From an uncultured bacterium (GTDB lineage Bacteria > Latescibacterota > UBA2968), in the NCBI GenBank assembly GCA_964471275.1, contig CAYYGZ010000016.1, positions 1 through 33,155 of the forward strand: a stretch of 33,155 nucleotides of DNA. Reading direction: 5' to 3'. The notes beneath the pieces were generated by a model. That model made no database searches and was not told the origin of the DNA. It saw only the letters and a list, made by a program, of their open reading frames with translations. The position numbers and the translations under genes are program-made. Shown in pieces: positions 3,597 through 30,966 of the stretch. Positions within the stretch are counted from its first letter, which is position 1. Each line of letters starts with the position of its first letter.

Positions 3597-4388
3597 TCAC
3601 ACGGGCGTTCCTGGGAGTGCTGTGTCCACTTGCTCGACGCCCTTCTTGCCCACCGGACAGACTCCCCAGCAGTAGCGGATATACGGGAGTTTACCCTCGG
3701 GGTTCTGTCTCTTGCATAGATCGGAAGGACACGCCCCCGTGAACCGGGCGACAGGCATCTTCTTGCTCGCTACATCCAGTTCGTAGATCTTGCCAAAACA
3801 TTCGTGCGCCCGCATACAGAGTCCACACTCCTCGCCGGGACAAATCGGTGGGCCGCTGTAGAGCGGATCGGGCTCCAACTCCGCTGACGTGATGAGCGAC
3901 TCCAGCCGCACGCGAGGGCCGTACTTCGGTGTCAGCAGCAGATTGTTGAGACCGATTTCCCCCAACCCGGCGGCAACGGCAGCGTGGCGGTGCGAAAAGA
4001 ACGCGTATCGTCCGGCACCGACCTTGCGCCCCCCTGCGGGAAGCGGCAATGCGGAATGACCGTGCTCCTCCAGCAGGAAGCCGACCTGTGACGCGACCTG
4101 CTGAAGCCGCATGTTCGCCGTGTCGTACATGAACTTGAACACCGTCGTCTGGACTTCCCACAACTCTTTGGGAGGAATCAACTCAGATTTCGTGCCAAAC
4201 CGGTCACATTCCAGGACGCTCTGGAAGAATCTGTGCGCAAGCACCACCACAGAACGCGCGCTGCGAAGCAGGTCTGTCGGGTGATGTCCCTTCGGTGCCC
4301 CGTCGAAACGATCGACCGATGCGATCCCGACCAGGTGTGCCCCCTGATCCAGCGCACGCTGTTTGACTTCTGCCGTCAAATCGGACAA
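3597..4388 (-). CDS. QueG (epoxyqueuosine reductase)/reductive-dehalogenase-like cobalamin-binding Fe-S protein
   Basis: GAHLVGIA, SHRHAAVAAGLGEIGLNNLLLTPKYGPRVRL signature, 8 C-terminal Cys (CPGEECGLCMRAHEC...CPSDLC...CWGVCP); TTG start after an AAGGAAGG RBS. Confidence 0.8.
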   Translation of the reverse strand: MSDLTAEVKQRALDQGAHLVGIASVDRFDGAPKGHHPTDLLRSARSVVVLAHRFFQSVLECDRFGTKSELIPPKELWEVQTTVFKFMYDTANMRLQQVASQVGFLLEEHGHSALPLPAGGRKVGAGRYAFFSHRHAAVAAGLGEIGLNNLLLTPKYGPRVRLESLITSAELEPDPLYSGPPICPGEECGLCMRAHECFGKIYELDVASKKMPVARFTGACPSDLCKRQNPEGKLPYIRYCWGVCPVGKKGVEQVDTALPGTPV

Positions 4389-4583
4389 ATCAGCCTTCCT
4401 TTCTCGTCTGCTGGTCGTCGATCCTGCTGTGCTAAGGCTCAGGACCCTGAATCTTCTCAGTTATTCCGGCGTTTCGATGGGTAGGGACACGACACTTGCC
4501 GTCTCTCTACCGGGCACCGAAGGTGATGACGGCACTGGTCATTGGCCACACCGCGGCGCCACGTTCTGAGGCATCGCGAAATA

Positions 4584-4693
4584 CCCGGGGTTTCGGCTGC
4601 GCTGTCGCTGCGCCTGCACCCCGGGCTACTTGGGCCAAGCCCTTTCAGGGCTCCCCCCCCGCCTCTCTTGGTGGGCTTGGTGCCCTTGGTGGT
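4584..4693. repeat. Composite REP-like intergenic element: inverted repeats plus 3x9-nt tandem
   Basis: cccggggt (4584-4591)/accccggg (4618-4625); palindrome agccctttcagggct (~4638-4652); tandem CTTGGTGGG-CTTGGTGCC-CTTGGTGGT (4667-4693). Confidence 0.55.
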
Positions 4694-4707
4694 CAACACA
4701 TTTGGTT

Positions 4708-5001
4708 TCAGATGTTCACGCCCACGGGCCGCTTTGCGTCTTCTGGCCCCCCGGCCAGGCGATTGTAGATCACAGCGATAACCAATCCACCAAACACGCC
4801 GTCTATAACGGCGTAGAGGGTGGCAACAGCGATGCTCCACGCTGTCGGCAGTCCGTCGTAGCCCGGGTATATGGAAGCCACCAGAGCCAGGAAGGCAACC
4901 GCATAGCCGTTCCAAATCAGATTGGTGATCCCCGCCATCAGCACTGCGCCTCCCCATACAATGGCGACGGTAAGCGTGAACGCCTTTGTGTCCAGTTTCA
5001 T
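4708..5001 (-). CDS. Small integral membrane protein (97 aa, about 2-3 hydrophobic segments), function unknown
   Basis: ATG at 5001 preceded by GGGAGGA RBS; MKLDTKAFTLTVAIVWGG...ASIYPGY...LYAVIDGVFGGLVIAVIYNRL hydrophobic pattern. Confidence 0.75.
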   Translation of the reverse strand: MKLDTKAFTLTVAIVWGGAVLMAGITNLIWNGYAVAFLALVASIYPGYDGLPTAWSIAVATLYAVIDGVFGGLVIAVIYNRLAGGPEDAKRPVGVNI

Positions 5002-5219
5002 TTGCTTGTCCTCCCGCTGTGACGTATGAATGAAAACAGGGCATGCCTCTACGAGAGACACCCCCTTCCACACTTCCCCGGACCTATACACGTTAAAGCT
5101 ACTACAACGCCGGTGAGCCTGTCAAAACAGACTGCCGAGAGGCAACCTTGACATCCGGCAACCGATCCATCAAGTACGCCGAGAGCCACAGAATTGCTCC
5201 TTTTCCAAAGAAGGCATGA

Positions 5220-6194
5220 ATGTTATCACGCGAACGTGTCATCGAAACCATCTCATTCCGAAAGCCGGACAGAGTTCCCGTATACGGCTGGGTCCGCTCG
5301 AACCTCGAGCAACCCATAACGGAGAAGTTCGGATCTGTAGAAGCATTCGAGGACCACTACGACTTCGACTACGCACACATCTTCGGGGGCCCGACACCCT
5401 ACGCCTCGTCTGACTTGAAGGCACTGCGCGACCAGTCGGGTGGCACCATCGATCCCGCCGCCCTCCTGGGGATCGACCTGACCGACCCAAACGACGAGGA
5501 ACGCTACCAGAAGGTGCGCGACTCGGTCAGGCATCATCGGGAGGAGCGGGGGCGATTTATCTACGTTCAGACCCCCGGCATCTTCGAATGTCTGAACGGT
5601 CCGTTCGGCATCGAGAATCATCTGATGTATCTGGCGCTGTATGAAGAAGATCTCAAGGAAGTCTACAGACGGCAGGCGGAGTGGAACCGAAGCTTCGCGA
5701 TGAACTGCCTGGATCTGAGTGTCGACATGATCCACATCTCGGACGATTGGGGAGCCCAGAATGCGCTGATGTTCAGTCCCGAGACGTGGTGGAACCTGGT
5801 CTACCCGTATCACAAAGTGACGTGCGACGCCGTTCGGAGTCGGGACGGATACCTGAGCCTTCACAGTGACGGGGACATCCGCCAGGTGCTCGACGGGGTA
5901 GTCGACCTAGGATTCAACGTCGTTCACCCTTGGCAGGAGTCCGCAGGGATGCGTTTCGACGAGTATCGCTCAAATCACGCTGATGATTTTGTGCTGATGG
6001 GCGGGCTCTGTATTCAGACCACGATCGGGTTCGGAAACTACGAGCGACTGCAGAGTGAAATCGAGCGCGTACTCGACACGTTCGCCGACGGCAGACTTCT
6101 GTTCTGCACAACACACTTCGTCCAGGACCATTGCACGATGGAAGAGCTCGTCTTCGCATTCGACCTCATTCACAGGCGGGTCCGTGGAGAGTAG
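5220..6194 (+). CDS. URO-D/MtaA/CmuA superfamily TIM-barrel protein (putative methyltransferase), copy 1
   Basis: N-terminal SRERV...KPDRVP, SDDWG, LHSDG, HPWQESAGM, LMGGL, C-terminal THFVQ. Confidence 0.88.
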   Translation: MLSRERVIETISFRKPDRVPVYGWVRSNLEQPITEKFGSVEAFEDHYDFDYAHIFGGPTPYASSDLKALRDQSGGTIDPAALLGIDLTDPNDEERYQKVRDSVRHHREERGRFIYVQTPGIFECLNGPFGIENHLMYLALYEEDLKEVYRRQAEWNRSFAMNCLDLSVDMIHISDDWGAQNALMFSPETWWNLVYPYHKVTCDAVRSRDGYLSLHSDGDIRQVLDGVVDLGFNVVHPWQESAGMRFDEYRSNHADDFVLMGGLCIQTTIGFGNYERLQSEIERVLDTFADGRLLFCTTHFVQDHCTMEELVFAFDLIHRRVRGE

Positions 6195-6225
6195 CTGCAA
6201 CGCGACACCTGCTCGATCCTGCGGC

Positions 6226-6520
6226 TCTCTCGAACGCGTCCTAACCGCCTTCGACTACCAACGACCCGATCGAGGCCCGCACCGAACCCCATTCCGAGGA
6301 CTTCGATCGACCTTCTTCGATGCCGACCGAAAAATGGGAGATGCGGGAATCGTAGACGTCAGCCTCGAGTTCAATCCGACAGGCTTTTTTGTGGAGCTGT
6401 GTGGATCCGAGAACTTCGCACTGATGTCGGCCACCGACCGCGACGAACGGCACCATCTTGTCACCTGAGAGGAACATTCCCCCAGGATTGACCCGGAAGC
6501 TTCGAACATGGTAATGTGTG
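6226..6520 (+). pseudogene. Internally deleted remnant of a URO-D-like gene
   Basis: Reads ERVLTAFDYQRPDRGP (N-terminal family motif), then after a short linker GDAGIVDVSLEFNPTGFFVELCGSENFALMSATDRDE (mid-protein-like); no start codon, stop at 6468; boundaries approximate. Confidence 0.55.
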
Positions 6521-6604
6521 TGCGTGCCCGCTTGCCGCGCTGCGCGGCAAAACCAGCCGATCCACGCCATCAATGAATAGATCAACCACCCATACGGGGA
6601 AACT

Positions 6605-7687
6605 GTGTTCAAACTGAAACCCGATTTCGAGCAGGTTTTGAACAGATACGAGGCCTGGTGGGAATGTGAGATCATCGACCGGACGCTCGTGTCGATCACA
6701 TATCCGGCAGCACAGCGCCATCCTGTTCCGACTTCCGATCACGCCACATTCCGCGAACGCTGGATGGACACGGAATTCATCGTCTCCCGTCGTGATACCG
6801 AACTCCGGAACACCGTCTTCTTCGCCGACAGCCTACCGGTTGCCTACCCCAACCTGGGACCGGAGGTCTTCTCCGCCTTCTACGGATGCGGTATGGAGTA
6901 TGGTGACCAGACCGCCTGGAGCGAACCGTGTCTGTCTGACTGGTCACCCGAGTCACTGGCTCGGCTACAACTCGACAAAGAGAGTTTCTACCTCCAAAAA
7001 CTCCACGAACTGACCGATGTGATGCTCGAGGTCGGTCGTGGCAACTACATCGTCGGGTATACCGACCTTCACGGCGGAGGGGACGCGATCGCGGCATTGC
7101 GCAACCCCCAGAACCTGCTGATCGACACGCTGGAGTGTCCGGAAAAGATCAAAACCCTCTGTGACCGGATCACGACCGAATTCCTCGGCATCTACGACAT
7201 CTTCCACGAGAAGCTCTCGGCCGCCGGGATGCCGAGCACCACCTGGTGCTCCGCCACCGGTAAGGGGAAGTATCACGTCCCGTCGAACGACTTCTCCTGC
7301 ATGATCTCGGACGCGGCATTCGAGGACCTGTTCATACCCGGCATCATCCAGGAATGTCGGCACATGGACCGCAACATGTACCATCTAGACGGGCCACAGG
7401 CGCTTCGCTTCCTCGACCGCCTGCTGGACATCCCCGAGATCCACGCAATCCAGTGGGTTCCCGGTGCAGGCAACGACTACTGGGGAGACTGGATCGAAGT
7501 CTACCAGCGGATCCAGGCCAGAGGGAAGGCGCTCCAGATCATCAGCGTCCCCATCGAGGATCTGCCGCGACTGGCTGAAGTGCTCGATCCCCACGGCGTC
7601 TGGATCAGTCGTGTAGAGGGAATCGAGAACGAAGCTGATGCGCGTTCCGCTCTGTCCGAGCTGGAGCGATGGACCAGGAGACGGTGA
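6605..7687 (+). CDS. URO-D/methyltransferase-like TIM-barrel protein, copy 2 (divergent subfamily)
   Basis: GTG start after GGGGA; YEAWW..IIDR, PNLGPEVFSAFYG, TDLHGGGD, SNDFSCMIS, YHLDGP, IQWVPGAG, GKALQI. Confidence 0.8.
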   Translation: MFKLKPDFEQVLNRYEAWWECEIIDRTLVSITYPAAQRHPVPTSDHATFRERWMDTEFIVSRRDTELRNTVFFADSLPVAYPNLGPEVFSAFYGCGMEYGDQTAWSEPCLSDWSPESLARLQLDKESFYLQKLHELTDVMLEVGRGNYIVGYTDLHGGGDAIAALRNPQNLLIDTLECPEKIKTLCDRITTEFLGIYDIFHEKLSAAGMPSTTWCSATGKGKYHVPSNDFSCMISDAAFEDLFIPGIIQECRHMDRNMYHLDGPQALRFLDRLLDIPEIHAIQWVPGAGNDYWGDWIEVYQRIQARGKALQIISVPIEDLPRLAEVLDPHGVWISRVEGIENEADARSALSELERWTRRR

Positions 7688-7691
7688 ACCG

Positions 7692-8657
7692 ATGACCCGA
7701 GAGCAAAATCTTATACGATCGTTGACCCACAGCACACCGGAATCGATCCCTGTGTCGGTCGGAATCCTTCCCGCCGCGTGGATGAAGTATCGAGAACGGC
7801 TGGACGAGGTCGCCCATCGCTACCCGGAGATCTTTGGCCGTCAGCGGGTCGCAAACAGGGATTACGACGCCGTGGGAGGAACATATGTAGCAGGAGATCA
7901 CCCGGACGCCTGGGGTTACGTGTGGCGGAACATCAAGACCGGGATGGAAGCGTTTGTCACTGGGCATCCGGTGCCGACGCGGACTGACGTGCACACGCTG
8001 CAAGCTCCCGAGGAGAACACTGGCTTCCCCCACGGTTTTATGTTCCTCAGGCTGACGTATCTGCGCGGGTTCGAGGAAGTGATGGTCGACTTCGCCGAAG
8101 AACCACCGGAGCTGCAGATGCTGATCGACATCGTCCTCGACTACTGCCTGCAGCAGGGCGAGATTCGGCTAACCGACCTGTCCGATCCACCGGCCCTCGT
8201 GACGTTTGGTGACGATCTCGGTATGCAGGATGCGCTTCCGATCAGTCCCGAAAAGTGGCGGCAATACTTGAAGCCGTGCTTCGAGAAGATTTACCGACCT
8301 TTCCGCGACGCCGGGCATTACGTCTATATGCACACAGACGGCCACATTCTCGAAATCATACCCGACCTCATCGACTGCGGTGTCAACGTGGTGAACCCGC
8401 AGGTCGGCGCAAACGGGATCAACAACCTTGCACGTGAGTGCAAAGGGAAAGTCTGTGTCGACCTGGATCTAGACCGTCAGCTGTTCCCCTACTGGGCGCC
8501 GAAAGAGATCGATGCGCATATCCAGAAGGCAGTCGAAACGCTGGGAGCGCCGGAAGGCGGCCTATGGTTGCGGGCTGAGCTGAGTGAGGAGATCCCGTTT
8601 GAGAACATAGAGGCGATCTGCGCGGGGTTGGAGCGCCACAGGTTCGCGTATTCGTGA
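7692..8657 (+). CDS. URO-D/MtaA/CmuA superfamily protein, copy 3
   Basis: ATG 7692 after AGGAG; DAWGYVW, LRGFEE, GDDLGMQ, YMHTDG, NPQVGANG, DLDRQ, PFENIEA. Confidence 0.88.
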   Translation: MTREQNLIRSLTHSTPESIPVSVGILPAAWMKYRERLDEVAHRYPEIFGRQRVANRDYDAVGGTYVAGDHPDAWGYVWRNIKTGMEAFVTGHPVPTRTDVHTLQAPEENTGFPHGFMFLRLTYLRGFEEVMVDFAEEPPELQMLIDIVLDYCLQQGEIRLTDLSDPPALVTFGDDLGMQDALPISPEKWRQYLKPCFEKIYRPFRDAGHYVYMHTDGHILEIIPDLIDCGVNVVNPQVGANGINNLARECKGKVCVDLDLDRQLFPYWAPKEIDAHIQKAVETLGAPEGGLWLRAELSEEIPFENIEAICAGLERHRFAYS

Positions 8658-8693: not shown

Positions 8694-9755
8694 TTGAACT
8701 CCCGTGAACGAATGCTGGCGGCGATCGACCGGGAACCGGTGGATCGCGTACCGACAGATATCTGGGCGACGGCCGAGGTCTGGGACAAGCTGCGACGACA
8801 CTTCGGAGAGGATACCGATATACGGGCCGAGCTCGGGATTGACGGGATTGCCTCGGTGGACGCGAAGTATGTTGGGCCGCGGCTTTCGTCCGTGGGAGAA
8901 GGCGAATCGATCAACTTCTGGGGAATGCGGACGAAATCTGTACCGCACGCAGGTGGCGCTTACGCGGAGCAGTCTTTCTACCCACTCTCCGACGCGCAGA
9001 CGATCGATGACCTGGACGACTACGCCTGGCCGCAGACCGACTGGTTCGACTACTCCGAGATGAGAGAAAGGGCCGAGCAGGCACGCCAGACACAGGCATT
9101 GTCGTGCGGCTATATGGCGCCGTTCTTCTTCCACAACAAGCTCCGCGGTCTCGAGCAGTCGCTGATCGATCCCCTTCTCGGCCCTGATCTGACACACGAG
9201 ATCGTCCGCAGGATCTCCGACTTCTTCTACGGCCATCACCGCCTGATGTTCGAAGCCTGTGACGGTCTGATCGATCTCGCCCAGGTGACCGACGATCTCG
9301 GCAGCCAGACAGGTCCCCTCATCAGCCTCGAGCTGTATCACGAATTCTATGCTCCGCAGCACAAACGGTTTATCGATCTCTGCCACGAGTTCGGGATCAA
9401 AGTCTTTCACCACGACGACGGGAGCATCCGCGAATTTCTCCCTCCGCTCGTCGATATGGGGATCGACATCCTGAACCCGATTCAGTGGCGCTGTCCCGGG
9501 ATGGATATGCGCGAGTTGAAAGATGACTATGGTGACCGGATCTGCTTTCACGGCGCGATCGACAACCAGGCCGTGCTGCCCTTCGGCACACCGGAAGAGG
9601 TCCGGGCCGAGGTACGCCTCTGTATTGATACACTCGGCAGAGACGGGACCGGATACATCCTCGCCCCCTGTCACAATCTACAGGTCATAACTCCCGTGGA
9701 GAACATCATCGCGATGTATGACGAGGCCCGGTCATACGTGAAATTTTCGTCCTAA
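8694..9755 (+). CDS. URO-D/MtaA/CmuA superfamily protein, copy 4
   Basis: TTG start; NSRERML..EPVDRVP, LRGLE, TDDLGSQ, FHHDDG, LNPIQ, FHGAIDNQ, GYILAPCHNLQ, PVENIIAMY. Confidence 0.9.
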   Translation: MNSRERMLAAIDREPVDRVPTDIWATAEVWDKLRRHFGEDTDIRAELGIDGIASVDAKYVGPRLSSVGEGESINFWGMRTKSVPHAGGAYAEQSFYPLSDAQTIDDLDDYAWPQTDWFDYSEMRERAEQARQTQALSCGYMAPFFFHNKLRGLEQSLIDPLLGPDLTHEIVRRISDFFYGHHRLMFEACDGLIDLAQVTDDLGSQTGPLISLELYHEFYAPQHKRFIDLCHEFGIKVFHHDDGSIREFLPPLVDMGIDILNPIQWRCPGMDMRELKDDYGDRICFHGAIDNQAVLPFGTPEEVRAEVRLCIDTLGRDGTGYILAPCHNLQVITPVENIIAMYDEARSYVKFSS

Positions 9756-9830
9756 CTTTACGTCGACAAGTGGGCTGAGGTAGCGTTCAAGAACTTACGC
9801 TTGAGCGTGTGCCTGCCCCGAGAGCCTGGA

Positions 9831-11054
9831 ATGCCACAATACAATGATATCCAGATCCTCCGAGATCTGGCCGAGCGGTATGTCGAAATCTGCACACATC
9901 CCGTGCAGCAGGAACGCCGTGCCCTCTGGCGCCGCCAGAACAGTCTCCAACAGACACGCCCCCTGATTTACGTCCGCGCCTTTGCCTGGCAGGAAATGCC
10001 GGAATCCGTCTGCCTGTCCGAAGACCCGCTCTTCAGAAAGATCGAGAACTTCTTCCGCAACCATCTCTTTTGGAACGACCTCCAGGACGACTCGATCTTC
10101 GAGCCGTGGGTGACGGTACGTGCGAGTTATGCCTGCAGCGGATGGGGTCTCTCGGGAAAACGCAATTTCAGTGACGAGATCGGCGGGTCTTACAAGGAGG
10201 ATTATCCGATCCGTGATCTTGAAGATGCGGACCGAATCACGTCTGCCTGGCACGAGATCGATGAGCCCGCGACGATGGCGAGAGTGGCACGCGTGTCCGA
10301 TGCGATCGGCGATCTCATACCCATAAACGTCGACCGGGCTCCCGCCTACAGGATGTGGTCCGCAGATCTCTCCACCGATCTGGGCCACCTGCGCGGCATC
10401 GAGCACTTCATGCTCGATATGTCGGACAACCCCGAATGGCTCCATCGCTTGATGGGTCGGATGAGCGACAGCGTGCTCCGCACACACGACGAAGCAGAAG
10501 CTGCCGGCGATTGGGGCCTGGGCGCACACCAGAACCAGGCCATGCCCTACGCGGAAGAGCTGACGGATCCGGCCGCAAACCAGAACGGTGTCCCGCGCGA
10601 TCAGCTCTGGTGCTTCATGGCCGCCCAGGAATTCACGGGTGTTTCACCCGCGATGCACGATGAGTTTCTCCTCCAGTATCAGATCCCGATCCTCGAGAAA
10701 TTTGGCCTGACGGCCTACGGCTGCTGCGAAGACCTGACCAACAAGATCGAAATGCTCCGCCAGATCCCGAATCTTCGCCGGATCGGGGTTTCCCCCTTTG
10801 CAGATGCGGCCCGATGCGCGGAACAGATCGGAAAGGACTACGTACTCAGCTATCGACCCAGCCCGGCGGATATGGTCGGATATGGCTTTGATGAGGACCG
10901 CATTCGCACCATCCTCGTGCGCGACCTGACGGCCTGCAAAGACTGCCACGTCGACATCACGCTCAAGGATGTCGAAACGGTTGGCGGGGATCCGAATCGC
11001 GTCAGGGATTGGGTGACTCTGACACGCAGGGTCATCAATGAGGTGTTTGGGTAG
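9831..11054 (+). CDS. URO-D/methyltransferase-like TIM-barrel protein, copy 5 (long divergent subfamily)
   Basis: ILRDLAERY..RRALWRRQNSL..RPLI, LRGIEHFMLDM, AQEFTGVSPAMHDEF, YGCCEDL, IPNLRRIGVSP, LKDVET; alternative TTG start at 9801. Confidence 0.78.
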   Translation: MPQYNDIQILRDLAERYVEICTHPVQQERRALWRRQNSLQQTRPLIYVRAFAWQEMPESVCLSEDPLFRKIENFFRNHLFWNDLQDDSIFEPWVTVRASYACSGWGLSGKRNFSDEIGGSYKEDYPIRDLEDADRITSAWHEIDEPATMARVARVSDAIGDLIPINVDRAPAYRMWSADLSTDLGHLRGIEHFMLDMSDNPEWLHRLMGRMSDSVLRTHDEAEAAGDWGLGAHQNQAMPYAEELTDPAANQNGVPRDQLWCFMAAQEFTGVSPAMHDEFLLQYQIPILEKFGLTAYGCCEDLTNKIEMLRQIPNLRRIGVSPFADAARCAEQIGKDYVLSYRPSPADMVGYGFDEDRIRTILVRDLTACKDCHVDITLKDVETVGGDPNRVRDWVTLTRRVINEVFG

Positions 11055-12816: not shown

Positions 12817-13869
12817 ATGAGAAAGACACGGATCGGAATCATCGGATGCGGCGGGATGGCGCGTTCGCACGCCTCCAGATTCGAAGACGTGCTCGACCGC
12901 ATCGAGATCACCGCGGTCGTCGATGCCGACCACGAAAGAGCGCAGGGCGTCTCCGAACTGCTTAACGGCGTCCCTGTAGCCGAAACAGATTACAGAAACA
13001 TCTATGATCTCGTCGATGCCGTCCTGGTCGTCGTTCCCCACCACCTGCATCACGCTGTGTCGATGGACTGCCTCCGGGCCGGCAAACACGTACTTGTCGA
13101 GAAGCCCATGGCACTCACCGAGTCGGAGTGTGTAGAGATGATCGTCGAGTCGAAGAAACAGGATCGCGTCCTGATGGTCGCATACTGTATGCGGTTTCAT
13201 CCACTCGTCGTGAAGATGAAGGAACTCCTGGACTCGAAGGCCTACGGCGAGGTGTTCCAGCTGTCGATATGGACCGAACAGTTGACGGAGAGAGATGCCG
13301 GGCACTGGTCACGAAGTGCTGCCACGCTGGGTGGCGGCCAGTTTTTCAGCCACGGCTGCCATTACATCGATCTGCTGCTCTGGATGCTTGGCAGGCCCGT
13401 TCGCGGCAACCACTACGGGACAAACAGGGGTACTCCTTGGATGGAGCGGGAGGGTACTAGCAACGTCACGATTGAATTCGAAAACGGCGTGCTCGGATAT
13501 CACTTCGGGACGTGGGGGGCCCGTGGCACGCGGCTCAAGTACTCGTTCCACGCACACTGTGAAAACGGAATGCTCGAAATCGCTCTGCGTGAAGGACAGT
13601 TGATCGCGCATACACGGGCCGAAGAGCACGACTCAGGGAAGCTGGTCGCACGACAGCAGGAGGAGGTCCTGCTCGAGGTCGAGCACGCGAAACATACGGA
13701 ACTCGAAATGGCGCACTTCATCGACTGTATCGAGCGCGGGGAACGTCCACTGACGGATGGGCCCGGAAGTCTGGAAGGCCTCCAGGTGATCTGGAAACTC
13801 TATGAAGCAGAAGAGAACAATGCGGTTGCAGATCTGAGTGATCTGGGGCTCGGTACCTGGACAGAGTAG
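12817..13869 (+). CDS. Gfo/Idh/MocA family NAD(P)-dependent oxidoreductase
   Basis: IGIIGCGGMA Rossmann motif, AGKHVLVEKPMA, GGGQFFSHGCHYIDL; GGAG RBS. Confidence 0.93.
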   Translation: MRKTRIGIIGCGGMARSHASRFEDVLDRIEITAVVDADHERAQGVSELLNGVPVAETDYRNIYDLVDAVLVVVPHHLHHAVSMDCLRAGKHVLVEKPMALTESECVEMIVESKKQDRVLMVAYCMRFHPLVVKMKELLDSKAYGEVFQLSIWTEQLTERDAGHWSRSAATLGGGQFFSHGCHYIDLLLWMLGRPVRGNHYGTNRGTPWMEREGTSNVTIEFENGVLGYHFGTWGARGTRLKYSFHAHCENGMLEIALREGQLIAHTRAEEHDSGKLVARQQEEVLLEVEHAKHTELEMAHFIDCIERGERPLTDGPGSLEGLQVIWKLYEAEENNAVADLSDLGLGTWTE

Positions 13870-17197: not shown

Positions 17198-17241
17198 GAT
17201 CACTCCTCACGTTATTCGCAACAGACATGCTTTAGGTCGGT

Positions 17242-18732: not shown

Positions 18733-18814
18733 GCGGTTCCCTTCGGTGGTTGACGTCTGCAGATGATCGATGACTGCTGTATAACGAACCATTGAGACAC
18801 TGCCTGTGCTCTCT

Positions 18815-20278: not shown

Positions 20279-20324
20279 GCCAATCTTCCCCTCTCTTCAC
20301 TGGCCAATGGTCATTGGATAATGG

Positions 20325-22265: not shown

Positions 22266-22506
22266 CCGGCAGGTTCTCGCAAACTCGATCACCAGTGACA
22301 GAGAGAGAGCTCGGACCGGCCGGATCCTAGCAGTCATCCAACACCGACGCAACTACGCCCGGCATCGTGTCCAGGGATCTGTTTGCATCTCTGATCGTGG
22401 ACATTCCCTGCGACGATTGATGAACGAGCAAATCACTGCCTCTCCCCAGCGATCCTGGCCCCCGCTTGATCGCACTCTGGCCGGTCCCAACCAATTGGCT
22501 GGAACC

Positions 22507-24414
22507 TCAAGCCAATCCTCCCTTGAGCACATCCAGAATCGGGTGATGCGAAGCGGGCGACATCAGATATGCCCCCGCCCATCCCTGCTGGACAGCCTGG
22601 CACAGTTGCTCAACAGCGATATCGCGCCCTACCTTCGCCTGATCCTGAGGACTTTCGAAGGCAGCCAACCGCAGGTAGACGTCATCTGGAATGACCACCC
22701 CGGGCACCTGTCCCAGACGCCGGGCGTGTTCCAGGCCCATCAGAATCGCCAGCCCTACGAGGATGGAGACACGTGAGCGGTAAGCCTCCAGGCACGCGAG
22801 GGGTTCGAAGCGGAAAGCCGGTTGGGTCAGGATATAGTCAGCCCCGGCATCGATCTTGCGTTCCAGTCTTTCCAACTCGTACTCGAGATTCAGAGCTTCC
22901 GGCTCAAACCCGCTGCCAATAGTGAAATGAGTGCGCGGGTCCCGGTGTTTACCCAGCGGCTGGCCGCCGAAATCGACACCGGCGTTCAAACCGCTGTGGG
23001 CGTAGTGAATCATGGCCACCGAGTCGAGATCGAAGACGGCGGTCGATCGTGGGTAAGTGGGAGACATCTTGGGCGGGTCACCCGTGACAAAAAGCACGTT
23101 GTGAATGCGCCGGGCATGATACCCGATGAGCCGGCTCTGCAAGCCCATGACATTGAGATCGCGGGTCGTGTAGTGGGGTATGAGTTCGAGACCATCTCCA
23201 CGCTCGCGAGTCCATCCCAGACGTTCTCGCACAATTCCGATAAAGTCGCCGGGGGGCATCAGGGGGATCCCGCGCGAGCCGTCAGTGACGTCGAGTGCGT
23301 CAGCCAACCCAGAGGCAGCCAGTTCAGCGACAAAGTCGACCTTGCTCTGCAGCGTCTTGGGCGCGGTGCCCCTGGCTGGGAGCATTTCCACGCTAACGGC
23401 AAACTCGCTGTTCTTGATCTTGTGTGAGAAGCGACCGTTCTGCTTCTTCTCCTCATCGCCGACAGGCGCTTTGCTCAGAGCACGATCCAACTGGACGGCA
23501 CGACTCCCCACCTGGCGTCCCTGCAGATAATTGTGCATCTCGTTGATATGAGCTGGATGGACTTCGCAGCACCCGCCAAGCAGGCAAACTCGGCGCTCCG
23601 CCAGCGTACGGGCAAACTTCCCCATGAACTCCGGGTTGACGTGGCTCATATACCGGTGTCCGATGCGCTGGAAGCCGCCAGCATTGGGCATGGCCGATAG
23701 CAGAACGTGCCCATCCTTGACAACCGCCAGATCCTCTACCTCGTCGACAAAATGAGTGACCTCCCAGGGCGCACAACAGTTAACACCAACTACCTGGGCA
23801 CCCATATCAGCCACCGTCTTCACAAACACCTGGGGATTCTGATCCCAGCCGTTATCGTCCTGATGCAGGGCCATCTGCACGATGACAGGGGGAGGATTCT
23901 CAAAGGTTTGGATAAGATCGAGCAGGGCCATCACGTGCGGCAGCGAGCTGAAAGTCTCCAACTGCAGAGCGTCCACTCCGCCCTCGATCAGGGCGCCGAT
24001 TTGGTCGCGGTAGATAGCGTTGAGCTCGTGGGGTGACTCGTGGCCCTCAGACGTAGGGCCCACCGCACCCAATACGTAGAAGGGCAACTCGATCCCGCTT
24101 TGGGCGCGGAACGCCTCGATAGCCTGATGGGCGACGTCAACGGCAGCCCAGTTGATCTCGACGAGTCGCTTGCCCTGGTCCAATGGTTCGAGGTGGGTTC
24201 GATTTGCGCTGAAGGTGTTGGTGGTCAGACACCGCGCCCCGGCTTGGAGGTAGGTCAGGTGGACCTCGTGGACCAGATCGGCCCGATCTACATTGAGCGC
24301 TTCGTAGACGTGATTAGTTTCCGAGATGCGGCCGGTGCGTTCGAACAGATACGACCCCATGGCACCATCGGATAACAGCGGCTGCGTGCGCAGATCTTCG
24401 ACAAAGTCGATCAT
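22507..24414 (-). CDS. yitJ: Bifunctional homocysteine S-methyltransferase / methylenetetrahydrofolate reductase (YitJ type)
   Basis: LSDGAMGS, AGARCLTTNTF, LETF, GVNCC, PNAG, GGCC Zn ligands; then MetF domain (VTDG, HYTTRDLN, VTGDPP, KIDAGADYILTQP); alternative TTG start at 24432. Confidence 0.88.
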   Translation of the reverse strand: MIDFVEDLRTQPLLSDGAMGSYLFERTGRISETNHVYEALNVDRADLVHEVHLTYLQAGARCLTTNTFSANRTHLEPLDQGKRLVEINWAAVDVAHQAIEAFRAQSGIELPFYVLGAVGPTSEGHESPHELNAIYRDQIGALIEGGVDALQLETFSSLPHVMALLDLIQTFENPPPVIVQMALHQDDNGWDQNPQVFVKTVADMGAQVVGVNCCAPWEVTHFVDEVEDLAVVKDGHVLLSAMPNAGGFQRIGHRYMSHVNPEFMGKFARTLAERRVCLLGGCCEVHPAHINEMHNYLQGRQVGSRAVQLDRALSKAPVGDEEKKQNGRFSHKIKNSEFAVSVEMLPARGTAPKTLQSKVDFVAELAASGLADALDVTDGSRGIPLMPPGDFIGIVRERLGWTRERGDGLELIPHYTTRDLNVMGLQSRLIGYHARRIHNVLFVTGDPPKMSPTYPRSTAVFDLDSVAMIHYAHSGLNAGVDFGGQPLGKHRDPRTHFTIGSGFEPEALNLEYELERLERKIDAGADYILTQPAFRFEPLACLEAYRSRVSILVGLAILMGLEHARRLGQVPGVVIPDDVYLRLAAFESPQDQAKVGRDIAVEQLCQAVQQGWAGAYLMSPASHHPILDVLKGGLA

Positions 24415-24555
24415 GGTCTTATAGCTGTGCAAGGCTGAACAAATGAGCTATGAAATGAGTAACCCAATATCGGTCGGTAGAGGTGCGGATGGTAAGAATA
24501 AACGACTTCTGGCCTACTCAGGGCAAGGAATCTGAGGCTTGCGAGGCGACACGGG

Positions 24556-24872: not shown

Positions 24873-26612
24873 TTACGACAATCCCACCACGTTGCCATCA
24901 TCGTCCAGATCAACGCGCATGAATGCGGGCAGCGACGGCAACCCCGGCATCGTCCTCATCTCGCCGCAGAGGGGGTAGATGAAGCCCGCGCCACGTGAGA
25001 TGCGAAGGTCCCGGATGGGCAGTGTGAACCCCTTCGGGACACCTTTCAGATTCGGATCGTGGGACAACGACAGGTGTGTTTTGGCCATGTTGATCGGTAG
25101 CTTGTCATACTTCAAGCCCGTGTAGAGCTCGATCTTCCGCTCCGCTTCGGGGAAGTAGTTGACCCGATCGGCCCCGTAAACCTCTGCGGCTAGAGTCTCA
25201 ATCTTCGTCTTGATCGAGGCATCCAGCGGATAGAGGAAGCGGCACTCAGTCCCGCCGTTGCAGGCATCGGCCACGCCTTCTGCCAGCTCGACCCCGCCCT
25301 CCCCACCACGCGCCCAGACGTCATTGGCATACGCGCCGTGGGCACCGGCCGCCACCGCGGCCTCCATAACGGCCTCAACCTCGGCGTCGGTATCGGTCGG
25401 GAACCGGTTGACGGCCACGACCACGGGAGCACCGAACAGGCGTGCGATCCGAATATTCGCTTCCAGGTTCGGCAATCCACGCCCCAACAGCGGCAGATTC
25501 TCCTGACGATACGCGCGGCGCAGCCTGCGGCCCGGCACCACGCGTGGACCGCCACCGTGCATCTTCAGCGCGCGTACAGAAGCAACCAGAACGATGCAGT
25601 CCGGGGCAAGGCCCGACGTCCTGCATTTTATATCGTAGAACTTCTCCAACCCACAATCGGCACCGAAGCCGCATTCAGTCACCACGTAGCCATCGGGTGC
25701 CAGCTTCAGGCCAATTCGATCCGCGATGATTGAGCTGCTCCCGTGGGCAATATTAGCGAACGGGCCGGCGTGCACGAATGCGGGTGTTCCCTCCAGGGTC
25801 TGCATCAGATTTGGTTTCAACGCATCTTTCATCAGCACGGCCATAGCGCCGGCACAGGTGAGATCGTCCGCGGTCACCGGCCTCCCCCATCGGCTCGTTC
25901 CAACCACGATGTCTCCCAGTCGTCGTCTCAGATCCTTCAGGTCTGTTGACAGGGCGAGGATAGCCATCACTTCCGATGCGGCCGTAATGTCAAAGCTGGT
26001 CTCGCGCGGTCGACCATCCTCCGTCGACCCCAGACCGGTCACGATATTTCTGAGCGCGCGATCATTCACGTCCATCACGCGCTTCCAGGTGACATTGTGC
26101 GCGCTGATATCTAACCGGCGGAGGTTCAGGACCTCCATACGATCGTCGCTGAGATGATCTTCGTGCATGATGCGGGCGTCAATCGCGGCCGACAGCAGGT
26201 TGTGAGCGACACCCACGGCGTGTGTATCGCCCGTCAGGTGGAGGTTGAAGTCTTCCATCGGAACCACCTGGGAGTATCCACCGCCGGCTGCCCCGCCCTT
26301 GATGCCGAATGTTGGTCCCAACGAAGGTTGCCGGATACACGCCATGCTCGGTCCGGCAGTGCGGTTCAAGGCCTGGCTCAGACCCACCGTGGTCACCGTC
26401 TTCCCCTCTCCAAGCGGCGTCGGCGTGATTCCGGTGACAACCACATAGTTCCCGTTCGGTCTGTCGGCCAGACGATTCAACACGTCCAGATGCACCTTCG
26501 CCTTGTGCGTGCCGTACAGATCCAGTTCTCCCTCTACAATCCCAAGATCGCCAGCCACATCCAGGATGGGCTTAAGCGTCACAGATCGGGCGATCTCAAG
26601 ATCGCTCAGCAT
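24873..26612 (-). CDS. fhs: Formate--tetrahydrofolate ligase
   Basis: TPTPLGEGKT, RQPSLGPTFGIKGGAAGGGYSQVVP, NLHLTGD, FDITAASEVMA, HAGPFANIAHG, MAKTHLSLS, MPGL; GGAGG RBS. Confidence 0.98.
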   Translation of the reverse strand: MLSDLEIARSVTLKPILDVAGDLGIVEGELDLYGTHKAKVHLDVLNRLADRPNGNYVVVTGITPTPLGEGKTVTTVGLSQALNRTAGPSMACIRQPSLGPTFGIKGGAAGGGYSQVVPMEDFNLHLTGDTHAVGVAHNLLSAAIDARIMHEDHLSDDRMEVLNLRRLDISAHNVTWKRVMDVNDRALRNIVTGLGSTEDGRPRETSFDITAASEVMAILALSTDLKDLRRRLGDIVVGTSRWGRPVTADDLTCAGAMAVLMKDALKPNLMQTLEGTPAFVHAGPFANIAHGSSSIIADRIGLKLAPDGYVVTECGFGADCGLEKFYDIKCRTSGLAPDCIVLVASVRALKMHGGGPRVVPGRRLRRAYRQENLPLLGRGLPNLEANIRIARLFGAPVVVAVNRFPTDTDAEVEAVMEAAVAAGAHGAYANDVWARGGEGGVELAEGVADACNGGTECRFLYPLDASIKTKIETLAAEVYGADRVNYFPEAERKIELYTGLKYDKLPINMAKTHLSLSHDPNLKGVPKGFTLPIRDLRISRGAGFIYPLCGEMRTMPGLPSLPAFMRVDLDDDGNVVGLS

Positions 26613-26685
26613 AGTTCCTCCAAATGGCAGGGCGAGCGCCGGTCGAGCGCCCGCCTCAATTAGCCATCAACGGTGTGATCGTGTA

Positions 26686-26715: not shown

Positions 26716-26771
26716 GGGCATCGCGTTATCCACGTGCAAAACTGTTTACTTGGTGGGACTCCTCTTCCGAT

Positions 26772-29309
26772 TCAGTCTCCCGTCGGAACCTCTGTTGGCG
26801 CACCAAGGTCCAGCGGCTCGGGGCAGCGGCTGAGGACTTCATTCCGCCAGGATGACGTATGTACCAGTGATGGGTCCTTCGGCAGTTGTAGTGGGAAAAG
26901 TCTGTCAACAGTGTCTGTCTTCAGCGCTCTCTCTATAACCTCGCCCCAGTAGCACCGGCGCTCGCGATTCACCTCGCACATCCCGGCCTCATCAGCGCCA
27001 CCGCAGGGACCGTTCGTCAACCGTTTGGCACACCCATCGGTCGGCTCTGGGCAAAGATACTGAAGGTCGGCAATCCGGCAGTCTCCGCACATCTCGCACC
27101 CGAGGCTGCTCGTCTTGATGGCCTGCTCGGCCAGCGTCATCATCCTGGCCGTCGCCCCTTCATTCTCGCCACCCATCAGACCTTTCATCAAGCCATAGCC
27201 GATGGTCCCATCCTCGAAGAACCGACGGTGGATCCATCCCATCATCGCGCCGGGTTTGGGGTAGGCTGATCGATCCGGTGTCTGATAAGGCCCGTCGACA
27301 AGCAGGCCATCATCTCCCTCCGGGAACAGGTAGAACGGGTTATCCGGGGCCAACTGCAGCTCACGCTTTCCATCGGCGTCGCGATATTCGGCGTAGCTTT
27401 CCCACCAATCCTGCCCCGACAGGTCCCTGTAGAGTTCCATCACCTCCAGCGCGTCTTTCAGGTCGCTGATGCCCGCCAGGTCGATACCCTGGTAGCCCAG
27501 TCCGCGCACCAGGATATCTGCCAGCAAGGCCGCTCGTCGGATGTATACCTTCCGCTCCTCCTGCGCCGTCTCGACAAAACTCAATTTCCGGAACCCGCTT
27601 CGCTCCTTCTTCGACATGAGCCGGCCGCGGTACTTCGCCTTCAGATCCTCCGGCAAAACAACGCCCGCCACGTGGATACGGTTAAGGGCGAGCACGACCT
27701 GCGGCGTGAGGACAAAAACCGTCCCGATCATCGGCACATCTGACAAGCCCATTCTGGCGGCGACGAGCTTGAGCTCCTGGAACTTCTTCACGTCAAAGCC
27801 GACCTGTGTGATGAAGTAGTCTGCCCCCGCCTGCCGTTTCTTCCAGAGCTTCAGGTATTGGCCCCAGAGATCTGACTCAAGATACTTGAATGGCGAGACT
27901 GCCGCGCCGGCAGTCAGTTCGCCTAGCGGCTGCCCCGGCCTTGGCATCAGATCCGGGAAATTCAGCCCGCGCCGCAGCGTCGAAGTCGCCATGAGAAGCG
28001 TCACCGCATCCAGGTCGAACGCGGCCCGCCCCTGCACCGGGTAGTCCCCAGTAACCGCAAAGACGTTTCGAAGTCCCTGGTTATACATGCCGAGAACGCG
28101 CCGAATGAGGCCATCTCGATCTTCACTCTTGCACGATAGATTGACGATCGGCTGCCGACCCGTGATCCGCGCGATCTCCAATCCGAGCGTATCTGGGCCC
28201 GGGGACCGATTGCCTCCCGGAGTATCAGTGACGCTCAAGGTGAAAGGTGTCTCACGAGTGGCCTCTGCCATTTCCAGGAGGCTATCGACCTTCCCTTCGG
28301 CAGGAGCCAGTTCGAGGATGAAGGCCGGGGCCGTTCCCGCCTCGAGTGTCTGGCGAAACGTATTCGGCATCGGCTGGCGATCGGGGACAGACGGTTTACT
28401 CGGATGGGCCTGGGCGAAGTCCACTAGCTTCGGTAGCACGGCGGAGCCGTCCTCAGCCGTAGCGACATCCTTGACCAGCTTGAGTATACGGGGATCCACA
28501 AGGTCCTTGCCGGTCACCTGCAACACGTCGAGCACCGCAGAGTCCAGACCGTTTTCGATCGCCACACGGAGGTAGGCTCGGTTGATGGCAAGTCGACGCG
28601 GTAGCCCATCCGAGCAGTTGGACAGACCGATGAGGACATGTACGCCCTCCATATCAGGATCCTCGCGGATCGATTTGATACCTTCGAAGGTCCGCCGGGT
28701 GTAACCGACCATGTCGGCGCCCAGCGGCCCGACGGTCGGATCCAGAAACACCTCGCCCGGTGCGAATCCGGATTCTATCGCTTTGTCGAACAGAAACTTG
28801 GCGGTCTCACGGTAGACCTCGGGTCCGGCAATATCGGTGAAGCCCATCCCACTATCCACCCGTTCGAGCAGCATGCCGATTACGGAGAACGCGAACTCTT
28901 TCCTCAACTCAAACAACTCAAGCCGGGTGATGGCAACAGAGTTGCACAGTGGCGGCGGCGCCCCGCTCCCGAGTATCTGGTAATAGTGACGCAGGCCGGT
29001 CTCGAGGATCTCCGAATCTGAACTGTCGATACACGCCGGTATCCCCGGGGCCAGCTCCCCGATCAGTTCCAGGATGTGGTCCATCAACCTGATCGTACCG
29101 TCGCGCCCGATATCGGCGTCGGTCAAAAAATCATCAACGTTGACGTCTAGGTAGTCGGCGCCGGCCACCGCCTGGTCGATCACCAGCTTTCTCAAGTGTC
29201 TCTCGCCGGCAATCTGATCCAATGCATCGCCCTGGAGCCATCTCCGGGCAGACTTCTGGACCGACGGGATGTGGCAGTGTAGCAGTTCGGCGACTCGAAT
29301 CAGACCCAT
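26772..29309 (-). CDS. Fusion: AcsE/MetH-type pterin-binding methyltransferase + MetF + MetV-like Cys-rich domain
   Basis: aa ~1-290: AGADYLDVN, CIDSS, CNSV, FLDP, GLSNCSDGLP, GLDSAVLD; aa ~320-630: SVTDTPGG, NLSCK, VTGDYP, SPFK, AGADYFITQVGFD; C-terminus CEMCGDC..CP..CAKRLTNGPCGG..CE..CYW; AGGAG RBS. Confidence 0.85.
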   Translation of the reverse strand: MGLIRVAELLHCHIPSVQKSARRWLQGDALDQIAGERHLRKLVIDQAVAGADYLDVNVDDFLTDADIGRDGTIRLMDHILELIGELAPGIPACIDSSDSEILETGLRHYYQILGSGAPPPLCNSVAITRLELFELRKEFAFSVIGMLLERVDSGMGFTDIAGPEVYRETAKFLFDKAIESGFAPGEVFLDPTVGPLGADMVGYTRRTFEGIKSIREDPDMEGVHVLIGLSNCSDGLPRRLAINRAYLRVAIENGLDSAVLDVLQVTGKDLVDPRILKLVKDVATAEDGSAVLPKLVDFAQAHPSKPSVPDRQPMPNTFRQTLEAGTAPAFILELAPAEGKVDSLLEMAEATRETPFTLSVTDTPGGNRSPGPDTLGLEIARITGRQPIVNLSCKSEDRDGLIRRVLGMYNQGLRNVFAVTGDYPVQGRAAFDLDAVTLLMATSTLRRGLNFPDLMPRPGQPLGELTAGAAVSPFKYLESDLWGQYLKLWKKRQAGADYFITQVGFDVKKFQELKLVAARMGLSDVPMIGTVFVLTPQVVLALNRIHVAGVVLPEDLKAKYRGRLMSKKERSGFRKLSFVETAQEERKVYIRRAALLADILVRGLGYQGIDLAGISDLKDALEVMELYRDLSGQDWWESYAEYRDADGKRELQLAPDNPFYLFPEGDDGLLVDGPYQTPDRSAYPKPGAMMGWIHRRFFEDGTIGYGLMKGLMGGENEGATARMMTLAEQAIKTSSLGCEMCGDCRIADLQYLCPEPTDGCAKRLTNGPCGGADEAGMCEVNRERRCYWGEVIERALKTDTVDRLFPLQLPKDPSLVHTSSWRNEVLSRCPEPLDLGAPTEVPTGD

Positions 29310-29443
29310 CTAAGATCTCCTGTCAGGTTTCTCAAAAAGTGTTGTAGCGATTGGAATACTTGTTCAGACCCCTCTCTATCGGAGTTTCCTCTGATTGGCA
29401 GTGCTGTTGTGGCCGAGCTGAGCAGTGCATTCATCCCAGGCGC

Positions 29444-29980
29444 TCACGACGCCTGGTTCTCACCGTCGCCTCCCAGCTCCTCAACCTCGACCATCATGTC
29501 ATGGGCAACGGCCTCGATATCCCGTAGAAGATCCTGAGCGGCAAGGGCGTCGGGAAGCTCCAGACGTGCGTCGGCCTTGAACAACGATTCACCCGACATC
29601 GGTGCTGCAACGCACTCGGTGGTCAGCTCTTCGACGTTCACACGATGGCGGGAAAGAACTGTCGAGACCTCTCGGACGATCCCGGGGCGGTCGCTGCTGA
29701 CCAGACTCAGCCGCACCTCGCGAAGCCGGTCACGGACGCTCTCTCCGTCCTGGGCAAATATGTGTAAACCGTTGGCCTCGAGCCCGGTCAACGCCTCGCG
29801 TAATTCCAGGGCCTGGCCCTGCGGGACGCTGACCCGTAACACACCAGCGAACTTACCAGCGAGATGAGACATTCGACTCTCCAGCCAGCTGCCGTCGTGT
29901 GCGGCGATCGTCTCCGCCAGTGATTCGACCAGACCGGGTCGGTCATCGCCGATCACGGTCAATACGAGATAGCCAGGCAT
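29444..29980 (-). CDS. gcvR: Tandem-ACT-domain protein, glycine cleavage system repressor GcvR family
   Basis: LVLTVIGDDRPGLV, WLESRMSHLAGKFAG, DRPGIVREVS, NVEELTT, APMSGESLF; GGAGG RBS before ATG 29980. Confidence 0.85.
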   Translation of the reverse strand: MPGYLVLTVIGDDRPGLVESLAETIAAHDGSWLESRMSHLAGKFAGVLRVSVPQGQALELREALTGLEANGLHIFAQDGESVRDRLREVRLSLVSSDRPGIVREVSTVLSRHRVNVEELTTECVAAPMSGESLFKADARLELPDALAAQDLLRDIEAVAHDMMVEVEELGGDGENQAS

Positions 29981-30354
29981 ACTCGGTTTCCTCCCCTCTG
30001 CTGCGTGCGGGGGCAGAATATTCACTTCTCAGCGGCGCCTGGATTGGCGTCCCCTTTGCGGCGGAAACGACCCGTGCAATGGCCCCGAAGGTCAAGCTAT
30101 TGCGCTTAAGCAAGACCTGTACCACAAGGTGGAAGCATTGCACGATCATACGTGACCAGAGCTTAATCACATTTACTGCAGTAGGTTACGCCTGTTCAAC
30201 AACAACGGAGCACGTCCCCGGCACGAGGAAAAAGGTGGGACCAGAACGTCCCAATGCCCATTCGCAACACGGCCCTGCCGGCGCAGTCAGACGATCTCAG
30301 CCAGATGCCCATAACCGATTGTGTGCCAGCGCAGGAGCAATCAGAATGTGCCGT

Positions 30355-30966
30355 TCATCGACGGATCGAAAGATCGAGTATCACTCCGGGTGAGATGATG
30401 AGTTCCGATGGCGTCGCGACAGCATCCACACGCTCATCCAGGTCATTTTGAGGGACAGCCTCGACAACTTGCCAGTTGTGAGCAAGCCCAATCTTCGGTA
30501 CGGAGAGATCACTGAGAAGTCGATCGTAGAATCCTGCTCCCATGCCGAGCCTGCAACCGGCTCGGTCGAACGCCACGCCGGGCACGATTATCAGGTCTAT
30601 GTCGGCCGATTTCGCTTCATCGCCAGATACGGGTTCACGCCCCCCCCACGAAGTTGTTTGCAGGTCATCGAGATCAGTGATGACTACGCTTCGCATCGTG
30701 CGCTCAGCCACCTGGGCCACCGGCACAAGGACTCGCTTGCCATCCTCGAAGGCGCGCTCGATAATCCAATCGGTGGTGATCTCCCCCGGCAATGCGCCGA
30801 CGTAAGTGTGAATGGTTCTGACCTCTCTCCACGTAGAGTGAGCCGTCACTCGATCAGCGATGGCACGTGACGCAGCGTGCACATCGCCAGCCGGCAGGGC
30901 CACCCGGTTCGCTCGCATGGTTCCACGTAGTCGCCGTTTCTCAATGTCAACGGGGGTATTTCCCAC
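30355..30966 (-). CDS. ygfA: 5-formyltetrahydrofolate cyclo-ligase
   Basis: EKRRLR, GKRVLVP, IDLIIVPGVAFDRAGCRLGMGAGFYDRLL, DERVDAVATP; GTG 30966 after GAGGT. Confidence 0.93.
   Translation of the reverse strand: MGNTPVDIEKRRLRGTMRANRVALPAGDVHAASRAIADRVTAHSTWREVRTIHTYVGALPGEITTDWIIERAFEDGKRVLVPVAQVAERTMRSVVITDLDDLQTTSWGGREPVSGDEAKSADIDLIIVPGVAFDRAGCRLGMGAGFYDRLLSDLSVPKIGLAHNWQVVEAVPQNDLDERVDAVATPSELIISPGVILDLSIRR

Follow-up and report, generated by a model that had tools for sequence, protein, structure and literature searches.

The window analysed here, a stretch of 33,155 nt (positions 1 to 33,155 of contig CAYYGZ010000016.1, assembly GCA_964471275.1, Latescibacterota, UBA2968), harbors six genes for paralogs of the UroD/MtaA fold (U1 to U6) and a folate cluster with a gene that fuses a pterin-binding methyltransferase (MT2) to MetF and MetV. 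Together with genes located elsewhere in the same genome they are best explained, a reading we hold with modest confidence, as parts of a dispersed four-component corrinoid methyl-transfer system, in which some of the UroD-fold proteins would serve as methyltransferases for the substrate (MT1). The host genome, G000 (4.63 Mb, 369 contigs, 92% complete), contains the window as its contig C16. C-numbers denote contigs of this genome, G-numbers genomes of relatives (G060 is a congener, 84% complete) and L-numbers fetched loci. The genes in question are:

5220..6194, + strand: U1, a UroD/MtaA-fold paralog with a PF01208 match (1e-11) and SDD and HSDG motifs
6605..7687, + strand: U2, a divergent UroD-fold paralog with an HLDG motif and without a Pfam match
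7638..8657, + strand: U3, a UroD-fold paralog with a PF01208 match (4e-7) and GDD and HTDG motifs
8694..9755, + strand: U4, a UroD-fold paralog with PF01208 above cut-off, the best MT1 candidate
9801..11054, + strand: U5, a divergent UroD-fold paralog with GCCE replacing the HxD/C motif and without a Pfam match
16079..17203, - strand: U6, a UroD-fold paralog with a PF01208 match (2e-18) and TDD and HSDS motifs
22507..24432, - strand: a YitJ-like fusion of a homocysteine methyltransferase (HMT) domain to MetF (HMT and MTHFR matches; 410 bits, cut-off 453), outside the operon conserved in relatives
24873..26612, - strand: Fhs, formate-tetrahydrofolate ligase (PF01268, 818 bits), a member of the conserved operon
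26772..29309, - strand: the MT2-MetF-MetV fusion, 845 aa (Pfam Pterin_bind, MTHFR and DUF5981, the last for MetV)
29444..30025, - strand: a tandem ACT protein, GcvR-like in shape only (25.6 bits, GcvR cut-off 267)
30355..31017, - strand: 5-formyl-tetrahydrofolate cyclo-ligase (5-FCL; TIGR02727 above cut-off)

All open reading frames named in an initial annotation of this DNA were found in place, and profile matches bore out its calls of an AcsE-MetF-MetV fusion, Fhs, 5-FCL and YitJ, the last of these below its cut-off; the name GcvR is poorly backed by its score. In the fusion, the pterin-binding MT2 part spans residues ~1-300, MetF ~320-590 and the Cys-rich MetV domain ~720-812. The closest solved relatives of the MT2 domain are AcsE/MeTr (2YCI) and 4O0Q, which we take to be the MT2 of a Desulfitobacterium O-demethylase, and the motifs DVN, IDS, NS, DP and GLSN could be aligned. 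Residues 1-300, which carry the folate-binding motifs, scored 99 bits against PRK07535 (cut-off 259) and represent the only free-standing MT2 candidate of G000. The remaining pterin-binding matches in this genome are MetH and a 275-bit match on C244, presumably FolP. The fusion is rare: in a set of 7999 scored candidates, 58 clusters reached E<=1e-60. Most of these clusters are full length with all three domains, and the named ones belong to Latescibacterota or Gemmatimonadetes, save one partial Dehalococcoidia entry. Judged by its domains, the protein very probably functions as MT2 and MetFV.

The six URO-D/MtaA-like genes of the initial annotation were likewise recovered, four of them (U1, U3, U4, U6) by PF01208 matches above the Pfam cut-off, U5 by structure and U2 by its look-alikes in the ESM Atlas. 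An HxDG motif is present in U1 to U4, HSDS in U6 and GCCE in U5. The U5 model (pLDDT 92) had UroD and MtaA as its best structure matches (Foldseek E 1e-6 to 3e-4), and the models of U4 and U5 both show the UroD/MtaA barrel fold, with Foldseek TM values for UroD of ~0.65 and ~0.52, respectively. Among the look-alikes of U2 is a cluster in which 54% of the members carry PF01208; its automatic Atlas name, 'Trimethylamine corrinoid protein 2 family', was taken as a lead only. Scores of U2 and U5 with the profile of the genome's paralogs are not independent, because both were seeds of that profile. U5 has 3377 homologs, the best 120 at 69-100% identity. The homologs of U2 form 423 clusters at E<=1e-30, and the best 150 of their representatives all have <=430 aa and include no fused UroD-corrinoid form.

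HemE identity was ruled out for U1 to U6, as the RQAGR motif (taken from the alignment with 6W2O) and a TIGR01464 match are missing in all six. They were also ruled out as members of the MtaA/CmuA family (TIGR01463): they have HxD motifs and no His-Cys-Cys zinc site, and their best score is 67 bits at a cut-off of 235. Support for MT1 activity is moderate in the case of U4 but weak for U2, U5 and U6. The view that all six are MT1s was not supported. In the entire genome, an iterated profile search gave 47 UroD paralogs on 27 contigs, after two weak matches were dropped, and at least some of these probably have MT1 activity. A PF01208 match at the level of HemE is missing in G000 and G060 (best 229 bits, an MtaA-like gene); most members of the class have one at 300-450 bits.

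In a profile alignment of U4 with MtaA (4AY7), HDDG lies opposite HICG and the C-terminal APCH opposite APGC. U4 has His-x-Asp ... His at the positions of His-x-Cys ... Cys in MtaA. In 119 sequences, D195, H234 and H321 never vary, and D236 hardly does. According to the accessible text of PMC10418091, the zinc cysteines are replaced by carboxylates or non-ligands in O-methyltransferases of the UroD superfamily, and an MT1 of UroD fold with zero zinc is shown in PMC13222342. In view of these reports the U4 site fits an O-demethylase but is not diagnostic of one.

A quick tree (88 rows, genome-derived sequences) placed the U4 clade as sister to UroD genes that precede a corrinoid gene in operons of relatives (SH-aLRT 98), and operon-linked UroD genes were spread over several deep clades. 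The modelled complex of U4 with the corrinoid protein encoded on C1 (see below) scored 0.64, compared to 0.00 for the best of three controls, none of which had the same fold. The value passes the mark set for such models. Of 157 solved complexes 116 reached this mark, of 215 mismatched pairs two did; these numbers are only roughly valid for the alignments used. The runs agreed in at least 93% of contacts, with a partner pLDDT of at least 87. In the model, the cap helix 91-103 of the corrinoid protein and residues beside its DxHxxG loop contact the U4 loops 147-156 and 198-208. This interface would lie next to D195, on the face expected for methyl transfer.

The initial annotation had proposed to search the genome for a corrinoid protein, an activase and FolD, and all three were found outside the window. 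The single free corrinoid protein of G000 is encoded at C1:14505-15260 (GDLHDIG, matching DxHxxG), flanked on one side by a genuine member of the MtaA/CmuA family (262 bits, TIGR01463 above cut-off, His-Cys motif) and on the other by the gene for the activase RACo (PF14574), whose reading frame is broken by an N gap; two HMT domains flank this module. FolD is located on C181. AcsB, AcsC/D (CdhD) and CooS of the Wood-Ljungdahl pathway were not found in the 92% complete genome, in line with the predicted lack of CODH/ACS; a gene of the COX1 family was. On C249, a gene for an MttB homolog is immediately followed by a UroD paralog, which is 64% identical to a UroD adjoining DUF1638 in G091 (C249:1-2019, L015).

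The C1 module is part of a core operon, GntR-X-MtaA-corrinoid-RACo-MetFV-AcsE-HMT, that was present as a whole or in part in 7 of the 12 regions fetched; in G000, G060 and G007 it lacks MetFV and AcsE. RACo occurs in 118/121 genomes of the phylum. The core operon (C1:11950-18475, L001 and L008; also L030-L034, L040, L041, L126 and L127) is widespread in Latescibacterota at ~78-88% identity; X is a 210-aa protein, and MetFV and AcsE are often included. It is a candidate methyl-thiol or halomethane scavenging system, separate from the main finding.

The proximity of YitJ to Fhs and of the two HMT domains to the C1 corrinoid module would also suit a reductive folate cluster, a split methionine synthase or C1 supply that leads from formate over Fhs, FolD, MetFV, MT2 and corrinoid to homocysteine methyltransferase and is unrelated to the paralogs. 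A corrinoid common to demethylation and methionine synthesis is described for Ruegeria pomeroyi in the accessible text of PMC12478193. However, G000 has a full-length MetH of 1228 aa on C42, G060 and 20/20 genomes of genus g2 have RACo without a fusion match, and the fusion is wedged between UroD genes in relatives. We regard a reductive role as improbable.

Corrinoid-dependent demethylation, as the preferred reading, draws on the surroundings of the fusion in relatives. At 14 fusion loci we found an accessory operon with a second-type corrinoid gene (9 loci), DUF1638 (8), RACo (6) and Fhs (9); three of the 14 have none of the accessory genes and three are ended by contig ends. A conserved UroD gene directly follows the fusion at 10/14 loci and has an ortholog (58-65% identity) on C295 of G000, and a U4-like gene (39-41%) is located upstream of the corrinoid gene at 4/14. 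Genes for MT1, corrinoid protein and MT2, dispersed in G000, lie together at 9 of the 14 loci. The demethylation system put forward initially is supported insofar as the fusion belongs to a corrinoid-DUF1638-RACo-UroD-Fhs operon of relatives; the window as one conserved unit is not supported. Orthologs of U1-U3, U5, U6, the ACT protein, 5-FCL, an Fe-S protein encoded at 3597..4388 and the full YitJ were present at 0/14 loci. YitJ, ACT, 5-FCL and Fe-S proteins were rejected as conserved operon members, and the proposed participation of the Fe-S or ACT protein found no support.

Twelve DUF1638 loci were fetched, 11 with a UroD gene and five with a corrinoid gene. Two of them encode DUF1638-hydantoinase fusions (L125:8475-11303 and L135:1906-4686; hydantoinase/oxoprolinase domain, ~940 aa, family f10) directly after a UroD gene. 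In Phaeobacter, DUF1638 accompanies a RamA-like activase (10.1101/192971, accessible text). All seven other fusion-bearing genomes of the class have DUF1638, which was not found in G000, and the operon order is broken there, as would be expected if an accessory demethylase operon were decaying in G000, with corrinoid, RACo and DUF1638 lost and the paralogs and the fusion left as orphans. Every reading frame is intact and of full length, however, and the missing genes may be unassembled, since the assembly consists of 369 contigs with a completeness of 92%, and the UroD gene of C295 is close to a contig end. We regard decay as a very improbable explanation.

C16 itself belongs to the genome. 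Its tetranucleotide profile is typical of G000, and its gfo-recQ genes are syntenic with and 77-86% identical to those of G060, which ruled out mis-binning. recQ (13900-15980) is seemingly split at a scaffold gap of 10 N (15484-15493) with duplicated flanks; since the two parts correspond to a single adjoining stretch of G060, this looks like an assembly artefact. The connection between the two halves of the window runs through this gap. A metagenome contig (L050), 98-100% identical to the window from U4 to recQ and possibly from the same population, confirms the gene order there. The co-location of UroD paralogs in the window is unusual, by a test made after the fact and for an arrangement not conserved in relatives: among 1599 genes on other contigs of at least 20 kb, 14% have at least one UroD paralog within 25 kb and 0.9% have at least four.

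Co-occurrence was counted in 93 genomes of the class, with up to 15 URO-D matches per genome and at least seven defined as expansion. Seven of the eight fusion carriers were expanded compared to 7/85 other genomes; three of the eight are truncated by contig ends, and a fragment of 92 residues (G114) was left out of the count. DUF1638 was present in 10/14 expanded and 1/79 other genomes of the class, and outside the class it also followed expansion (18/25 compared to 0/3). The contrast found in the class was seen again inside the genera g14 and g20. The congener G060 has kept the core corrinoid module and has one URO-D match; no fusion, Fhs or YitJ was found in it. Because G060 shows neither UroD expansion nor the folate branch yet shares gfo-recQ, both appear to have been gained or kept together in G000.

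Close orthologs of U4 (70-78% identity) occur across Lentisphaerae, Verrucomicrobia, Kiritimatiellia and Latescibacterota. We inspected 80 metagenome loci, of which only 25 have at least 10 kb and some are near-duplicates; 22 of the 80 have a second UroD gene. A glycosidase match (GH1, 2, 4, 35, 36, 38, 42, 106, 116, 123) was near the U4 ortholog at 13 of 47 scanned loci, a count without a background rate. In G000 the neighbours of the paralogs include GH29, GH38, GH43, GH78, GHL10, three Gfo proteins, three xylose-isomerase-like barrels and four glycyl-radical enzymes, as well as sugar isomerases and dehydratases. None of 56 scanned neighbours of other G000 paralogs, a set that excludes the C1 module, is a corrinoid protein. 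The glycosidase context points, tentatively, to methyl sugars as substrates. The four glycyl-radical (PFL-like) enzymes are encoded at most two genes from UroD paralogs (L174, L181, L182; C55, C8, C178), and one of them has a radical-SAM activase, which points to anaerobic capacity beside the COX1-family gene.

Several observations weigh against the corrinoid-dependent reading. None of the window paralogs reaches the MtaA/CmuA cut-off, and the clades of U2, U5 and U6 contain no operon-linked member in the quick tree. A corrinoid neighbour was present at 1/80 close U4-ortholog loci (L105, with RACo, DUF1638, corrinoid and HMT), and it was absent within 1.5 kb of five U4-like genes (39-42% identity) in other genomes. 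The score of the U4-corrinoid model, for which no HemE control exists, may reflect likeness to solved complexes of barrel and cobalamin domains. The one free corrinoid protein of G000 sits in another operon with its own His-Cys-Cys methyltransferase, and three parts of the relatives' accessory operon, its corrinoid protein, second RACo and DUF1638, were not found in this genome. The layout of the window is not conserved either, since the orthologs listed above are missing from all fusion loci. Moreover, the counts within the class ignore kinship, and their genomes overlap the 14 fusion loci. The predicted co-occurrence of fusion and UroD expansion held within the class and failed outside it, where 25/28 genomes are expanded without the triple fusion and the three with the fusion have one or two URO-D matches.

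The number of 47 paralogs with one free corrinoid, the absence of corrinoid genes from 79/80 U4-ortholog loci, the frequent glycosidases at such loci, and the glycosidases (GH29, GH38, GH43, GH78), sugar isomerases, dehydratases and Gfo proteins around the paralogs of G000 would all be accounted for if the divergent paralogs were corrinoid-independent enzymes of carbohydrates or sugar acids, i.e., metal-dependent hydrolases, lyases or decarboxylases on a UroD barrel. The role of the fusion would then be limited to the His-Cys-Cys methyltransferase of C1, the MttB homolog and a few operon-type UroDs such as that of C295, and the halves of the window would be neighbours by accident. U5 lacks the HxC/D motif, and the native gfo-recQ genes stand between the two blocks. 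On the other hand, UroD genes from several separate clades are located inside corrinoid-DUF1638-RACo operons, DUF1638 and the fusion follow UroD expansion in the class, and the U4-corrinoid model outscored its controls, although these lack the same fold. We consider corrinoid-independent paralogs unlikely, but the most serious of the alternatives.

The other genes of the window are:

243..3571, + strand: an Opp/Dpp-type ABC importer, permease and two ATPases (Pfam BPD_transp_1/OppC_N, ABC_tran/oligo_HPY)
3597..4388, - strand: a QueG/RdhA-like Fe-S protein, 263 aa (weak TIGR02486 and TIGR00276 matches below cut-off)
4708..5091, - strand: a 127-aa membrane protein (holin_4, NF037947, 49.5 bits, cut-off 70), without phage context
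11323..12756, + strand: a sulfatase with a CxPxR motif (Pfam, motif)
12817..13869, + strand: a Gfo/Idh/MocA oxidoreductase (Pfam), native to the genus and syntenic with recQ in G060
17242..22352, - strand: a sulfatase, a PhoD-like phosphatase and a family-5 solute-binding protein, upstream of U6 (Pfam)

Another permease of the importer is cut off at the window start. The Fe-S protein had been labelled a cobalamin Fe-S protein. Its scores for RdhA and QueG (24.4 at a cut-off of 160 and 18.8 at 200 bits) do not justify this name; its Atlas look-alikes carry Fer4 families, homologs lie beside a UroD gene at 2/9 loci, and cobalamin binding is putative. The window harbors three sulfatases, and the initial annotation had coupled desulfation to demethylation. 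In G000, with 116 sulfatase-like genes, 7/47 paralogs (15%) are near a sulfatase compared to a background of 18% for other genes, and no specific coupling emerged. An Rfam search of the window gave zero matches, and the result of a promoter/terminator scan was at chance level.

In the proposed route, imported oligosaccharides would be cut by glycosidases, and some of the 47 UroD-fold paralogs, with U4 as the best case, would act as MT1, whose oxygen-ligand metal site would transfer the methyl group of a substrate, which is most likely an O-methyl sugar, to the Co(I) corrinoid protein of C1. RACo would keep this protein reduced. The N-terminal MT2 domain of the fusion would pass the methyl group to tetrahydrofolate, the fused MetF-MetV would oxidize methyl-tetrahydrofolate to methylene-tetrahydrofolate, and FolD and Fhs would convert its carbon to formate with a gain of ATP or direct it into C1 biosynthesis. 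As a side outlet, the homocysteine methyltransferase domains could divert methyl groups to methionine; CODH/ACS would play no part. We infer that the paralogs use the C1 corrinoid in common and that the folate branch runs in the oxidative direction. The habitat of the host may be marine.

The systems Odm, Vdm, Mtv, Mto and CdmBCA, all four-component with an MT1 of the UroD superfamily, are alike in UroD-fold MT1 candidates, corrinoid protein, RACE-type activase and pterin-binding MT2 (PMC13222342, PMC10418091, accessible text). The likeness drawn here is one of components. In G000, in contrast, MT2 is fused to MetF and MetV, the host is a Latescibacterota bacterium lacking CODH/ACS, and 47 paralogs in glycan contexts face one free corrinoid. 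Fusion, host and paralog expansion are new relative to the known four-component systems. R. pomeroyi (MtgBCDE with MetF2, RamA and DUF1638) also uses one corrinoid for demethylation and methionine synthesis and has an MT2 gene adjoining metF and oxidation linked to tetrahydrofolate in a respiring bacterium, to which the COX1-family gene of G000 may correspond; its MT1 is of the MttB family with glycine betaine as substrate (PMC12478193, accessible text), whereas G000 has UroD-fold candidates and a single MttB homolog. MT2, MetF and MetV form one chain here, and DUF1638 was not found. The type 1 mlp clusters and the MtaA/CmuA family share several UroD-superfamily genes with corrinoid and RACE, and the C1 module fits them, whereas U1 to U6 have no His-Cys-Cys site and fall far short of the cut-off. 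As described in the accessible text of PMC10418091, mlp clusters are without MT2; the operon of the relatives is built around it. HemE resembles the paralogs in fold but differs in the motif and family match that all six lack.

The catabolism of sugars is blocked by methyl ethers, and carbohydrates that are methylated reportedly resist degradation in the gut and the sea (PMC6292453, accessible text). The characterised sugar demethylase that we found in the literature, a cytochrome P450 of marine bacteria with the same proposed task, removal of sugar methyl ethers, requires oxygen, releases formaldehyde and has a fold unrelated to the UroD paralogs (PMC6292453). Similarly annotated Bacteroides genes are merely listed in the accessible text of PMC8941943. 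We found no description of the triple fusion, of a fusion operon in Latescibacterota or of corrinoid-dependent sugar demethylation in a literature search that left out most subscription papers and supplements.

It is conceivable, if somewhat doubtful, that the large HxD-type UroD clades whose genes neighbour glycosidase genes in Latescibacterota, Lentisphaerae, Kiritimatiellia, Chloroflexi and Planctomycetes form a family of cobalamin-dependent sugar O-demethylases and provide an oxygen-independent route for methylated glycans. Dozens of substrate-specific MT1s would then feed one corrinoid protein, and in this host MT2, MetF and MetV, joined in a single chain, would direct the methyl group towards oxidation. 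With its operon, the fusion provides a small number of expressible parts with which this could be tested directly. If the paralogs are indeed MT1s, thousands of proteins labelled 'uroporphyrinogen decarboxylase' would gain a function, and heterotrophs lacking CODH/ACS would gain a methyl-oxidizing branch.

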